Shown in pieces: positions 29,610 to 32,438 of a stretch of DNA of 64,000 bases. The position numbers were made by a program, and so were the translations under genes. The stretch is from the NCBI GenBank assembly GCA_050011835.1, contig JBEKII010000001.1:86473-150472 (forward strand). Direction: 5' to 3'. Position 1 is the first letter of the stretch, and each line of letters starts with the position of its first letter. Origin of the DNA: Minisyncoccia bacterium. Its GTDB lineage: Bacteria; Patescibacteriota; Minisyncoccia; Phycocordibacterales; Phycocordibacteraceae. The notes under the pieces are model-generated. The model worked only from the letters and a program-made list of their open reading frames with translations. It did not search any database and was not told the DNA's origin.

Positions 29610-32438
29610 TTATACCACAAGGTTGACAATCTTGCCTGGAACATAGACCACGCGCGCTGGCTCCTTATCTCCAAGTGCGGCAATTACCGCGGGCAGTTTG
29701 AGGGCCGCGGCTAACGCTTCGGCTTCGCTTGCCTCGCTCGACAACCGAATGGTACCCCGCTTACGGCCAGCAACTTGTACGACAATTTCATTTTCAGTTG
29801 CAGCAGATAAAGAAGCGACTGGCCATGATTGTTGATGTACGCTTCCTTCCCCGCCAAGTTTTTCCCAGAAATATTCGGCGAGATGCGGTGCGAATGGCGC
29901 GAGCATAATAACGAATGATGGGAGCACGGCTTTCGGGACAATTTCTGTGGTTTCAAGTTCATTCACAAGAATCATCAAAGCCGCGATACTCGTATTGAAC
30001 TTAAATCGATCGCTGTCTTCGGCAATTTTAATGTTTGCGCGCGCAATGGCTTTTTGAATTGAGCCCGGTATCTCGGTCGTATCGTACGCGCGTCCGACGA
30101 GCCGTACGGTGCGGTCAAGAAATTTACGCATTGCGGCGACTCCTTCTAAATTCCATAGATAACTCCCCGATTCATTGTAAGGGCCAATGAACGCGAGATA
30201 CATGCGCACCGCATCGGCGCCATATTTCTGCACGAACTCATCGGGATTCACCACGTTTCCTTTGGACTTGCTCATTTTCCGGCCATCCGAGCCCATGATG
30301 AGCGCACGATTGAAACGCTCCGCGAACGGCTCTTCAACCGGCACGAGAGCGAGGTCATAAAGCGCGTGTGTGAAGAAACGCGAGTAGAGAACATGCATCG
30401 TTGTATGCTCGCTTCCTCCCGAGTAGCGATTTATCGGCAACCATTTTTCCATCAGCGCCGCATCAGAAAAATTGTACTTATCTTTTGAGTCAAGATATCG
30501 GAGAAAATACCATGAAGAGTCCACAAAGGTATCAAATGTGTCATATTCCGGCGTCCACCCTTCGCCGAAAATTTTTGTCACGCGCTTCCGCAATTCTTTT
30601 GAAGAAGCCAACGGGGCTTTGCCGGTCGGCTTAAAGTCAACATCGGTCGGCAAGAGCCAAGGTAAATGTTCGGCGGGAATCGCGTGCGGCTTCCCTTTTG
30701 GGTCATACACAATCGGTATTGGACAGCCCCAATAGCGCTGACGGCTCACGAGCCAATCGCGGATGCGGTATTGCGTTGCCTTCTCGCCCCCGACGGCTTC
30801 CACGATGTCCCATTTGGCTTCTTCGCTGTTGCGTCCGCTAAATTCACCTGAATCAATAAGAATGCCTTGCTCCGTATATACATCTATGCCGGTACGAATA
30901 CGATTGCGAATGAGCTCTATTTCAGAATGTTGGATGCGCACGGTCATAAATTCTTCGGCAGTAAGCCAGATGACTTCATGTTGCTCAGTTTCTTTCGCAG
31001 CGACAGGTTTGCGCGCATTGTCAACTAATTCAAACAAAAGCATTGAATTGCGGGCGATGCGGTTGACGCCTTTATGTGCCGCATAAAACTCGGCTTGCGC
31101 GTCACCGCCGAGTTTGCGCACAAAACGCACGTCTGTGTAGCCGGTCTCTTCGGCAATTTCGCGTTTAGCTGATGCAACAATATTTTCCCCTTCTTCAATG
31201 CCGCCCGTGACAAACGTTGTCCACGGTTGTTTTTTCCACTTCAGACAAAGATAGCGATTCGTTTTGGGATCAAAAACGACATCAATTGTTGCGCGACGAG
31301 GGACAACTTCCTTCCCGGGCTGATGCGGATTTGTCGGGTCCGGCAAGCGCGGCATAATGACATCCCGAATTGGCAGATTAAACTTTTTTGCGAATTCAAA
31401 GTCGCGTTCGTCGTGCGCGGGAACCGCCATCACCGCGCCGGCGCCGTAGGAGCCGAGAACGTAGTCGGCAACGTACACGGGAATTTTTTCCTTTGTTGCG
31501 GGGTTGATGGCTGAAATGCCTTCAAGACACACGCCGGTTTTTTCTTTATTCTCGCTACGCTCCCGTTCGGTTTTTTTATTCGTTGCGCTGACATATTCCT
31601 TAATCTGTTTTTTATTTGAAACAGCGGATAACAAAGATGAAACAAGCTGATGTTCAGGCGCGAGCACGACATACGTCGCGCCAAAGATAGTGTCTGGCCG
31701 TGTCGTGAACACTTTAATTTTCTCGTCACGACCAGCAATCGGGAATTCCAGATACGCACCTTCGCTCTTCCCGATCCATGCGCGCTGCGCTTCTTTTATC
31801 TCCTCACGCCACGGGAGCGTGTTCAAGCCGGCGAGAAGACGTTCGGCATAGTCGGTAATCTTAAGAAACCATTGTGTAAGCCGCTTCTCCTCCACCGCCG
31901 TACCGCACCGCTCGCAGCAACCGTCTATCACCTGCTCATTAGCAAGTACGGTTTGGTCTTTCGGACACCACTTGACCGGCGCCTCGCGACGCTCGGCGAG
32001 TCCATGCTCAAAAAGTTTTTCAAAGAGCCATTGTGTCCATTGATAAAAATTTGGATCGCACGTGACCACCTCTTTGCTCCAATCAAAAGATGCGCCCATT
32101 GTTGCGAGTTGCTCGCGCATCCGCGCCATATTCTTATACGTCCACTCTCTCGGATTGGCATTGTGCTTTATGGCGGCGTTTTCGGCAGGAAGACCGAAGG
32201 CGTCAAAACCAATTGGGAAAAGGACATTCTTCCCTCTCGCGCGCAACATCCGCGCATAAATATCAGTCACCGCGAAAGCATACCAATGCCCAATGTGGAG
32301 ATCTCCCGAAGGATACGGGAACTCAACGAGTAAATAATAACGCTCTCTTGATTCATCGGTAAGATTGGCCGAATAGAGACCGAGTTTTCTCCACTTCTCC
32401 CGAGCCGCTTTCTCAATTTTTGAATGATCGTATGTCAC
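29610..32438 (-). CDS. leuS: leucine--tRNA ligase with a NUDIX hydrolase domain inserted after the CP1 editing domain
   Basis: HIGH ([13 protein letters not shown]), the editing-domain T-rich region (TTRPDT), [10 protein letters not shown] and KMSKSKGN are all present. Between LPIRDVI and GILIDSGEF lies a ~160-aa insert with a textbook Nudix box [23 protein letters not shown]. Confidence 0.9.
   Translation of the reverse strand: [942 protein letters not shown]

Follow-up and report, generated by a model that had tools for sequence, protein, structure and literature searches.

The leucyl-tRNA synthetase (LeuRS) encoded in the window (i.e., the whole 64,000-nucleotide stretch of Minisyncoccia DNA that was analysed) carries, inside its CP1 editing region, a complete and, by its sequence, apparently active Nudix pyrophosphatase domain. 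As the best explanation, to which we give about an even chance as a whole, we propose that the gene product is a fully functional bacterial LeuRS bearing an active, autonomous Nudix pyrophosphohydrolase that stands outside the aminoacylation and editing cycle. Seated in a CP1 surface loop, the module would work as an enzyme in its own right, cleaving a pyrophosphate linkage in a small molecule that contains a nucleobase, whether a surplus or non-canonical (d)NTP or a dinucleoside polyphosphate, and would play no part in aminoacylation or editing. On this view, the aminoacyl-tRNA synthetase (aaRS), being essential and expressed constitutively, would carry a "house-cleaning" activity, possibly one held near the nucleotide by-products of aaRSs. 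The insertion itself, its fold, its distribution, the conserved catalytic residues, the integrity of the LeuRS motifs and the dispensability of the domain are results of the analysis; that the domain is catalytically active, which class of substrate it would act on and that it stands apart from the reaction cycle of LeuRS are what we infer.

The leuS reading frame is single, in frame and free of interruptions (Table 1), and its product matches the bacterial LeuRS model of NCBIfam (TIGR00396 leuS_bact) with 887.5 bits (cutoff 548.4), in two stretches with the insert between them. The protein is identical to MGD0328217.1 (NCBI, Minisyncoccia bacterium), encoded on a 276,720-bp NCBI contig, and a further identical copy is present in JGI. 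Owing to the insertion layout, NCBI lists this protein, as it does several of its relatives, simply as "class I tRNA ligase family protein" and not leucine--tRNA ligase. The stretch singled out by the earlier note (30873..31355, minus strand) translates to aa 362-522 of the 942-residue ORF and lies between a segment of 21 residues (aa 341-361) and one of 11 residues (aa 525-535). We set the boundaries by alignment to Thermus thermophilus LeuRS (1h3n), where aa 5-364 correspond to Thermus 6-366 and aa 520-730 to Thermus 376-593. As both flanks align, the true insertion is aa 365-519, so that the placement first proposed, between the CP1 core and the resumed LeuRS, holds and can now be given exactly. 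The LeuRS editing-domain model (PF13603) ends at profile position 144 of 185, immediately before the insert, and the GC content of the insert (0.47-0.53) is the same as that of its flanks.

Table 1. Features of the Nudix-bearing leuS gene (nucleotide positions are those of the window; Tth, T. thermophilus)
Feature	Residues (aa)	Position	Strand	Remarks
leuS ORF	1-942	29610..32438	-	942 aa + stop, GTG start; bacterial LeuRS bearing the insert
Rossmann catalytic domain, N-terminal half	1-217	31788..32438	-	Pfam tRNA-synt_1, aa 14-217
HIGH motif	48-51	32286..32297	-	H48, G50, H51 invariant (85 orthologues)
CP1 editing-domain core	219-364	31347..31784	-	PF13603, aa 219-365, 209 bits
T-rich motif TTRPDT	245-250	31689..31706	-	T245, T246, R247, T250 invariant (85 orthologues)
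AHDERD motif	341-346	31401..31418	-	H342, D343, R345, D346 invariant (85 orthologues)
Insertion proper	365-519	30882..31346	-	~155 aa; replaces the 9-residue Thermus LeuRS loop 367-375, within CP1
Nudix fold	382-501	30936..31295	-	Pfam NUDIX PF00293, E = 1.7e-11, 44.7 bits (gathering cutoff 21.1)
Nudix box	412-434	31137..31205	-	23 residues; catalytic metal-binding helix
Subfamily signature	451-460	31059..31088	-	10 residues; X-loop aromatic pair at +17/+18, invariant K456
E483, downstream of the box	483	30990..30992	-	invariant, 108/108
W491, downstream of the box	491	30966..30968	-	invariant, 108/108
CP1 end and C-terminal half of catalytic core	520-790	30069..30881	-	aligned to Tth 376-593 and from 637 onward
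KMSKS motif	721-725	30264..30278	-	K721, M722, S723, K724 invariant (85 orthologues)
Anticodon-binding and C-terminal domains	791-942	29613..30068	-	Pfam Anticodon_1, aa 798-904; reaches the end of Tth LeuRS

As a sequence match, the hit of the insert to PF00293 is far above chance, and every position of the box fits the consensus GX5EX7REUXEEXGU, in agreement with the claim of a perfect Nudix box in the earlier note. Taken together, the alignment, the Pfam match and the position of the box bear out its central proposal, a Nudix domain inserted into LeuRS after the CP1 core. AF2 models predict a confident Nudix fold both for the insert alone (pLDDT 84.9, pTM 0.81) and in the context of the full-length protein (10-residue pLDDT blocks of 88-95 over aa 361-520). 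A pLDDT of at least 91 in the linkers hints that the orientation of the domain on CP1 may be fixed and not that of a loose tether, a point that speaks against a freely carried module.

Conservation of the box residues in orthologues had been named beforehand as one of two points at which the proposal could fail. Among the 120 closest homologues, 113 carry an insert of 154-175 aa at the same site, and in these 113 (our conservation set) G412, E427 and E431 are present without exception and E430 in all but one (112/113). The position of R426 is occupied by R or K in 103/113. In the X-loop, F or Y is found at +17 in 112/113 and at +18 in 106/113 (F451 and Y452 in the window), the two residues swapping freely at both positions, and the signature continues with K456 (113/113), N459 (105/113) and R460 (100/113). 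E483 and W491 would be candidates for additional catalytic or substrate-binding residues. The insert evolves faster than its host (mean pairwise identity 38% vs. 73% for the LeuRS core) and still keeps its catalytic glutamates invariant, which points to purifying selection centred on the active site.

We dropped the assignment of the insert to a characterised Nudix subfamily, given that the PDB sequence search, NCBIfam and Foldseek all came without family-level significance. The PDB sequence matches reached E ~0.01. No NCBIfam equivalog cutoff was attained, the best model being NudB (31.6 bits vs. 103, with nearly full-length coverage), followed by YfcD (28.3 vs. 152) and two RppH models (23.1 vs. 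116 and 20.1 vs. 118). Foldseek matched 584 Nudix structures at E <= 1e-3, with identities of 13-23%. PMC5389931 gives as the marker of ADP-ribose diphosphatases a proline ~15-16 residues after the box, and as that of NADH diphosphatases the motif SQPWPFPQS; among 94 copies, neither a proline at +14 to +18 nor SQPWPFP was found (0/94 each). An aromatic X-loop pair together with the lack of the ADP-ribose proline and of the NADH motif fits a putative stacking on a nucleobase.

The distribution of the fusion is broad. The same architecture recurs in more than 100 orthologues of 64-78% identity from independent assemblies, and hundreds of diverged ones exist. In an exhaustive search, ~109 of the best 150 (of 385) 50%-identity cluster representatives were LeuRS, and in GTDB 76 of 80 loci were LeuRS-hosted, gut MAGs labelled Bacilli among them. 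The insert-bearing LeuRS is the usual form in many bacteria with tiny genomes, among them CPR/Patescibacteria and a large gut-MAG clade labelled Bacilli. Thus, the description of the fusion as unusual stands only in part: the LeuRS of model organisms whose structures are solved do not have it and our literature search turned up no paper on it, but in its own lineages it is the rule. An impression of rarity from an insert-only, word-indexed search, which returned nearly exclusively free-standing Nudix proteins and two fusion fragments, was a sensitivity artefact that the full-length and exhaustive searches corrected. Among relatives, a LeuRS can contain as many as three Nudix copies, and several sites of the synthetase are used; the copies in the LeuRS of the two distant lineages look independently captured. 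Other hydrolases of small molecules are inserted at these hot-spots as well, in line with the carrier reading: Ham1/ITPase (matched over its full length with 197 bits), HAD_2 and Ser_hydrolase. The idea that the host is always LeuRS was overturned by P0274, by Pfam a prolyl-tRNA synthetase (ProRS) hosting the same Nudix subfamily. ProRS is the only other recognised host among the best 150 of 385, and a rare one (1 of the 80 ProRS loci that were retained, besides the query; the two instances, in class II ProRS, are diverged); its copies show the X-loop signature, with the box R and first E substituted. Such a strong bias towards aaRS hosts (LeuRS mostly, at several sites, and ProRS) is not explained by a pure carrier model and, as a pattern among sequences, argues for some functional tie to aminoacylation.

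Insert-less LeuRS are interspersed among the insert-bearing nearest neighbours, and within the gut clade labelled Bacilli the Nudix-box helix is deleted or mutated while LeuRS is retained. Judged from these sequences, the Nudix insert has repeatedly disappeared or degenerated, and the scattered absences, coupled with decayed boxes in retained synthetases, indicate that it is dispensable for LeuRS function. Free-standing Nudix proteins of ~160 aa belonging to the same subfamily (e.g., P0001, P0003-P0016) are 44-49% identical to the insert across its whole length and share with it the Nudix box, the 10-residue X-loop motif and an N-terminal GK..V.R segment, which suggests that the domain is able to work alone. 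Unlike the insert, they are independent genes; their neighbours are CYTH/HAD/LMW-phosphatase or alpha/beta-hydrolase genes, with no aaRS gene alongside. The closest of these homologues lie in CYTH-(HAD_2)-LMW phosphatase-NUDIX clusters, a setting that fits the carrier reading. Two ties to neighbouring genes were discarded. The alpha/beta-hydrolase ORF two genes upstream of leuS (33594..34325) has generic fold similarity only, both to the hydrolase domain fused in LeuRS relatives (E = 5e-4, 24% identity around the nucleophile elbow) and to the hydrolase adjoining P0001 (E = 1.5). The HAD gene adjoining P0005 is related to the HAD domain in LeuRS P0151 at the family level only (23% identity, E = 1e-6) and is not its specific ortholog.

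The strongest competitor to an autonomous passenger is an Ap4A/Np4N hydrolase coupled to the synthetase, a possibility that we rate as clearly the less probable one. Such an enzyme would clear dinucleoside polyphosphates at their source, removing the products that aaRSs form from aminoacyl-AMP and ATP or another NTP, so that ATP and AMP are recycled and neither alarmones nor RNA caps build up. It would account for hosts that are nearly all aaRSs among the best 150 of 385, for LeuRS being the host in both of the distant lineages, at several of its sites, and for the two diverged instances in the unrelated class II ProRS. The aromatic pair at +17/+18 may also correspond to the marker of ApnA hydrolases, a tyrosine ~17 residues after the box according to PMC5389931 (citing Dunn 1999), yet the interchange of Y and F makes this marker unspecific. 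Likewise, the top Foldseek matches include Ap4A hydrolases (3i7u, with TMt 0.81 and rmsd 2.7; 4mpo; 4ijx) and RppH bound to Ap4A (7sp3), but MutT-like and NUDT15-like NTPases score equally. No ApnA hydrolase family was matched by the insert in the PDB sequence or NCBIfam searches, the likeness being one of fold. It is not obvious what the co-inserted Ham1, HAD and serine-hydrolase domains would have to do with Ap4A, the free-standing homologues keep company with phosphohydrolase genes and not with aaRS genes, the domain is repeatedly lost or decayed, and ProRS hosting is rare. LeuRS is not known as one of the strongest Ap4A producers. A wider version of such coupling, which we hold as a still more tentative idea, is that the aaRSs of ultra-small genomes (LeuRS mainly, ProRS rarely) act as a chassis for cis-acting clearance by embedded Nudix, Ham1/ITPase, HAD and esterase domains, so that Ap4A/Np4N, non-canonical NTPs and possibly aminoacyl esters would be destroyed at the enzyme that produces them. 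If true, this would give translational quality control and nucleotide economy a further layer that has so far gone unrecognised.

It is rather improbable that the domain is mainly non-catalytic, i.e., a nucleotide sensor regulating LeuRS (through CP1 movement, editing or tRNA binding) or a stabiliser of CP1. Its position in the mobile CP1 with confidently modelled linkers would suit such a role, and some copies do have degenerate boxes (9/100 at site B and 5/16 at site A, extra tandem copies especially), and the ProRS copies have the R and first E of the box substituted; Nudix proteins without enzymatic activity are known (PMC5389931). A module that only binds would not require all of the catalytic glutamates, so their retention in the 113 closest orthologues, in a domain that drifts to 38% identity, counts against it; moreover, the free-standing homologues retain the same box and loss of the domain is tolerated. 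Even less likely is an RppH-like enzyme that would remove pyrophosphate from, or decap, the 5' end of tRNA or RNA delivered by the synthetase. The host binds RNA and E. coli RppH structures occupy Foldseek ranks 2 and 3, but the NCBIfam RppH models fall far below their cutoffs (20-23 bits vs. 116-118) and the free-standing homologues cluster with small-molecule phosphohydrolases. Mature tRNA, moreover, bears a monophosphate at its 5' end, and it is with the 3' CCA end, rather than the 5' end, that CP1 deals. An artefact (an assembly chimera, which the earlier note had raised against itself, an intein or a mobile element disrupting leuS) has next to no probability, as the frame is intact, identical proteins stand in NCBI and JGI beside more than a hundred orthologues at 64-78% identity and hundreds of diverged ones from independent assemblies, synteny is conserved, GC equals that of the flanks, no flanking repeats surround the insert, Pfam finds no Hint/intein domain in this LeuRS, and the junctions VI|MPR and TEQ|GIL are without the Cys/Ser/Thr and His-Asn residues of inteins.

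Both a passenger enzyme and a coupled one would be of consequence. If the domains are passengers only, they offer a clear natural case of enzymes gathered onto a scaffold that the cell cannot do without, and map permissive LeuRS insertion sites that are possibly useful in engineering. If they are coupled to aminoacylation, they would add a new step, one of proofreading or of by-product clearance, and would tie translation directly and physically to the metabolism of Ap4A or of the nucleotide pool.

Compared with canonical LeuRS (T. thermophilus 1h3n/2byt and E. coli 4aq7; 672 and 590 bits to solved structures), the window protein shares the HIGH and KMSKS motifs, the T-rich and Asp motifs of CP1, and the anticodon-binding and C-terminal domains. 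It differs in the 155-aa Nudix domain that takes the place of the 9-residue Thermus loop, in the absence of the Thermus leucine-specific domain (about 594-636) and in having no cysteines in the counterparts of two short Cys-containing Thermus loops. Single-domain Nudix enzymes (Aquifex 3i7u, Chlamydia CT771, human NUDT2, RppH, MutT/MutT1, NUDT15 and NudB) have the same fold and box, with target-normalised TM-scores of 0.6-0.8 and identities of only 13-23%, and the X-loop aromatic of the insert may be comparable to that of ApnA hydrolases. In the LysRS-Ap4A-NUDT2 system of eukaryotic signalling, an aaRS makes Ap4A and a Nudix enzyme removes it, the two being separate proteins that act in trans; here the Nudix domain is covalently embedded in the aaRS, and any link to Ap4A is putative. 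Accreted modules are known in other aaRSs, e.g., CP1 itself, the INS domain of ProRS and the GNAT domain joined to IleRS (NCBIfam NF040702), while the Mycoplasma LeuRS without CP1 (3ziu) marks the opposite extreme; these cases show that whole domains can be gained by or lost from aaRS cores, above all in the CP1 region. The substrates of these accreted modules are aminoacyl-tRNA, amino acids or antibiotics, and in a full-text literature search we came across no publication reporting a Nudix, Ham1, HAD or serine-hydrolase domain inserted into an aaRS, the one apparent hit being an entry in a reference list. Domain accretion in aaRSs is usually viewed as something eukaryotic, and bacteria with reduced genomes would be expected to shed domains. 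Contrary to this expectation, the only LeuRS type recognisable in Patescibacteria and in the gut MAGs labelled Bacilli bears, at defined hot-spots, one to three Nudix domains, sometimes joined by ITPase, HAD or esterase domains.

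The Nudix domain lies within a single uninterrupted leuS reading frame, and aa 362-522 are preceded by a CP1 segment (aa 341-361) and followed by a segment of the LeuRS core (aa 525-535). When aligned with the Thermus thermophilus LeuRS (structure 1h3n), aa 5-364 correspond to Thermus residues 6-366 and aa 520 onward to Thermus 376 onward, i.e., ca. 155 residues stand in place of a 9-residue CP1 loop (Thermus 367-375). Coordinates, translation, Pfam matches and this alignment thus confirm the earlier note, which had placed a Nudix domain between these two segments. The insert has the GC content of its flanks and no flanking repeats were found. 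Genes here run in the order YchF, leuS, a sigma70-r4/HARE-HTH protein, an unannotated ORF and YceG, and downstream of leuS this order recurs on an independent contig with a diverged fusion.

Features of the window and conservation of Nudix box residues among insert-bearing orthologues
Feature	Window position	Strand	LeuRS aa	Remarks
leuS ORF	29610..32438	-		uninterrupted, GTG start, 942 aa
Insert region as first noted	30873..31355	-	362-522	translated from the leuS ORF
Nudix box	31137..31205	-	412-434	
tRNA-synt_1			14-217	Pfam match
LeuRS editing domain PF13603			219-365	Pfam match, ends at profile position 144/185
NUDIX PF00293			382-501	E = 1.7e-11; 44.7 bits vs cutoff 21.1
Anticodon_1			798-904	Pfam match
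G412			412	conserved 113/113
R426			426	R or K in 103/113
E427			427	conserved 113/113
E430			430	conserved 112/113
E431			431	conserved 113/113
Two alpha/beta-hydrolase-like ORFs	33594..35194	-		upstream of ychF-leuS, adjacent
Five tRNA genes	39155..40473	-		Ala-GGC, Ala-CGC, Pro-GGG, Pro-CGG, Val-CAC
tRNA-Pro(GGG)	40220..40290			not in Rfam set
MutT-like Nudix ORF	46958..47398	-		free-standing, box GGKVKIGESITQAIERETKEEVGM
ddl-like ORF	47406..48368			MutT-like ORF just downstream

Elsewhere in the window, ARAGORN finds seven tRNAs and Rfam six at the gathering threshold. The two alpha/beta-hydrolase-like ORFs (243 aa, Hydrolase_4 61 bits; 290 aa, weak Abhydrolase_3 match) lie in a stretch of clearly lower GC (0.35-0.44 against ~0.5 elsewhere); specific homology with the hydrolases that LeuRS relatives carry as fused domains was not supported.

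An assembly chimera, which the earlier note had raised, is excluded: a full-length search found the identical protein at NCBI (MGD0328217.1, contig of 276,720 bp, entered as 'class I tRNA ligase family protein [Minisyncoccia bacterium]'; the same sequence is named leucyl-tRNA synthetase at JGI), and among the 120 best homologues, at 64-78% identity, 113 carry an insert of 154-175 aa at the same site. Searching a word-indexed database with the insert only brought up mainly free-standing Nudix proteins (~160 aa, 44-49% identity), with just two fusion fragments, a scarcity that proved to be a sensitivity artefact, and rarity of the fusion was rejected. With the insert as query, phmmer run exhaustively over 1.84 billion cluster representatives gave 385 matches at E <= 1e-3 (205 at E <= 1e-10); 108 of the best 150, probed with segments of the window protein, are LeuRS or LeuRS fragments, and Pfam recognised one further LeuRS fragment among them. 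Among GTDB species genomes, the Nudix domain is embedded in LeuRS at 76 of the 80 best loci. Carriers are deposited as Parcubacteria, Paceibacterota, Kaiserbacteria, Taylorbacteria, Uhrbacteria, Saccharibacteria and Minisyncoccia, and also as gut MAGs labelled Bacilli, Clostridia and Tenericutes. On one JGI contig (L001:1050-3979) the orthologous gene is split into at least five called ORFs, by either frameshifts (a pseudogene) or sequencing errors.

LeuRS and Nudix are both textbook families, and fused proteins are already in public databases, where their Pfam matches are precomputed; NCBI often names them just 'class I tRNA ligase family protein'. In reduced genomes domain loss is expected; the finding is of real interest, its architecture being common to many genomes, contrary to this expectation, and directly testable. 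The fusion, called unusual at first sight, is not rare. Full-text searches returned no description of a Nudix, Ham1, HAD or esterase insertion in any aaRS, and tRNA synthetases go unmentioned in the 2017 review of the Nudix clan (PMC5389931).

The box residues, whose lack of conservation would have spoken against the earlier note, are nearly invariant (table), and K456, E483 and W491 outside the box are fully so (108/108). Mean pairwise identity is 38% in the insert against 73% in the LeuRS core and 72% in CP1; as the catalytic residues are conserved despite this drift, selection is concentrated on them. AlphaFold2 predicts a confident fold both for the insert with its free-standing homologues (pLDDT 84.9, pTM 0.81) and at full length (pLDDT 87.4; 10-residue blocks 88-95 over aa 361-520, linkers included). 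Foldseek matched hundreds of Nudix structures, the best of which, none outside 13-23% identity, belong to small single-domain enzymes: MutT/Nudix protein 2azw, RppH, NUDT15, MutT1 and the Ap4A hydrolases 4mpo and 3i7u (for 3i7u, TMt 0.81, rmsd 2.7). By sequence, no subfamily could be assigned (NudB 31.6 bits vs cutoff 103; YfcD 28.3 vs 152), and a PDB sequence search gave matches at E ~0.01 only. The X-loop, ~17 residues past the box, bears substrate markers: Tyr in ApnA hydrolases, Pro in ADP-ribose diphosphatases and SQPWPFPQS in NADH diphosphatases (PMC5389931). The orthologues' inserts never have Pro at the marker position or the NADH motif, and positions +17/+18 are taken by an aromatic pair (112/113 and 106/113 with F or Y), which fits nucleobase stacking but does not separate NTP from Np4N substrates.

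The domain has been lost and has decayed repeatedly. Seven LeuRS in the close set lack the insert; they do not form one clade, and several have insert-bearing nearest neighbours (82-85% core identity); since far more distant LeuRS have the same site occupied, several secondary losses are implied. A large low-GC gut MAG clade labelled Bacilli (P0293-P0412 and L063) has LeuRS with Nudix at this CP1 site. The L063 enzyme (L063:1882-4692, plus strand; 34% GC, 937 aa) shares only 39% identity with the window protein, yet its box there, GGTIKDGETAIDCATREIKEETGY, is perfect, and its closest relatives include a 90%-identity cluster of 599 member sequences. In P0333 (1102 aa) two Nudix domains stand in tandem, and the first is of the FYAAHK..NR type seen in the window. 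Variants of 892-895 aa in this clade have the box helix deleted and keep a remnant of ~115 aa, and one 937-aa member has REIEEA where REIxEE is expected; an active Nudix domain is therefore not required for LeuRS to work.

LeuRS relatives are a multi-hydrolase chassis. Up to three Nudix copies occur per protein, at hot-spots (window numbering) about aa 208-240 (entry to CP1), at aa 361/523 (the site occupied in the window), and around aa 578-587 and aa 612-638 (at short Cys-containing loops of Thermus LeuRS in the 1h3n alignment). In P0143-P0208, aa 781/798 is a further hot-spot for inserted domains. Copies within one protein are 22-46% identical, each being nearer to same-site copies elsewhere or to free-standing proteins, so that old paralogy or repeated capture seems likelier than a recent tandem duplication; the boxes of extra copies are often degenerate. 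The hot-spots also hold a full-length Ham1/ITPase domain (197 bits; P0155, P0195) and HAD_2 (P0151, P0203). Ser_hydrolase PF06821 sits at differing sites in P0147, P0183, P0186, P0208, P0229 and P0053, and within P0143-P0208 one partner family can occupy different sites in different proteins. Inserts of 130-145 aa in P0177, P0182 and P0198 had no Pfam match.

A second, non-homologous aaRS host exists, though it is rare. P0274, among the representatives listed, is by Pfam a class II ProRS and not a LeuRS; a Nudix domain of the same subfamily (signature FYAVHKDVNRYA) separates its anticodon-binding domain from the C-terminal one. A metagenome scan gave another from a different sample (L087:1168-3093, plus strand; 70% identical to P0274) and no Nudix insert in the other 79 ProRS loci kept. 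In both, the box shows some substitutions (KEIIEETGY and NEIMEETGY).

The closest free-standing homologues (L083:2163-5486 and L084:3559-5105) lie in conserved same-strand clusters of CYTH, LMW phosphatase and NUDIX genes, with a HAD_2 gene in one of the two, and a third adjoins an alpha/beta-hydrolase gene. Around a more distant homologue, P0019, L085 and L086 hold tandem arrays of 3-4 Nudix genes. The window's MutT-like ORF, starting at an internal Met of a listed 311-aa ORF, indicates that the LeuRS insert is not the organism's sole Nudix protein.

With about even confidence, we take the insert to be an autonomous, active Nudix pyrophosphohydrolase that a fully functional LeuRS carries and that stands outside the aminoacylation and editing cycle; its nucleobase-containing substrate would be either of the NTP type or a dinucleoside polyphosphate. 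This reading draws on the selectively conserved active site, the free-standing homologues and their phosphohydrolase gene neighbours, the dispensability of the domain and the 'house-cleaning' character of the co-inserted domains (Nudix, ITPase and HAD). Its main rival, put forward in the earlier note, is that the domain clears Ap4A in coupling with the synthetase; the striking bias to aaRS hosts, ProRS included, and the X-loop aromatic residue favor it, but the other co-inserted hydrolases, the genomic neighborhoods of free-standing homologues and the repeated loss make it rather unlikely. A non-catalytic regulatory role, to be set beside the degenerate boxes of extra copies and the conserved box at the window's site, seems improbable. 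Less probable still is an RppH-like, RNA-directed role: RppH is among the best structural matches, but its sequence model scores 23.1 bits vs a cutoff of 116.

The host protein is, judging from its sequence, a real LeuRS: it scores 887.5 bits against the bacterial leuS equivalog TIGR00396 (cutoff 548.4), and in an alignment of 85 orthologues the HIGH motif (H48, G50, H51), KMSK (aa 721-724), the T-rich editing motif (T245, T246, R247, T250) and the editing aspartate region (H342, D343, R345, D346) are invariant. Thermus LeuRS has a leucine-specific domain before KMSKS, whereas the window enzyme has none (30264..30881, minus strand, aa 520-725). The Thermus Cys loops CEAC and CPKC are replaced by the cysteine-free YDPKGK and KIFGEG, and in relatives both positions serve as insertion hot-spots.
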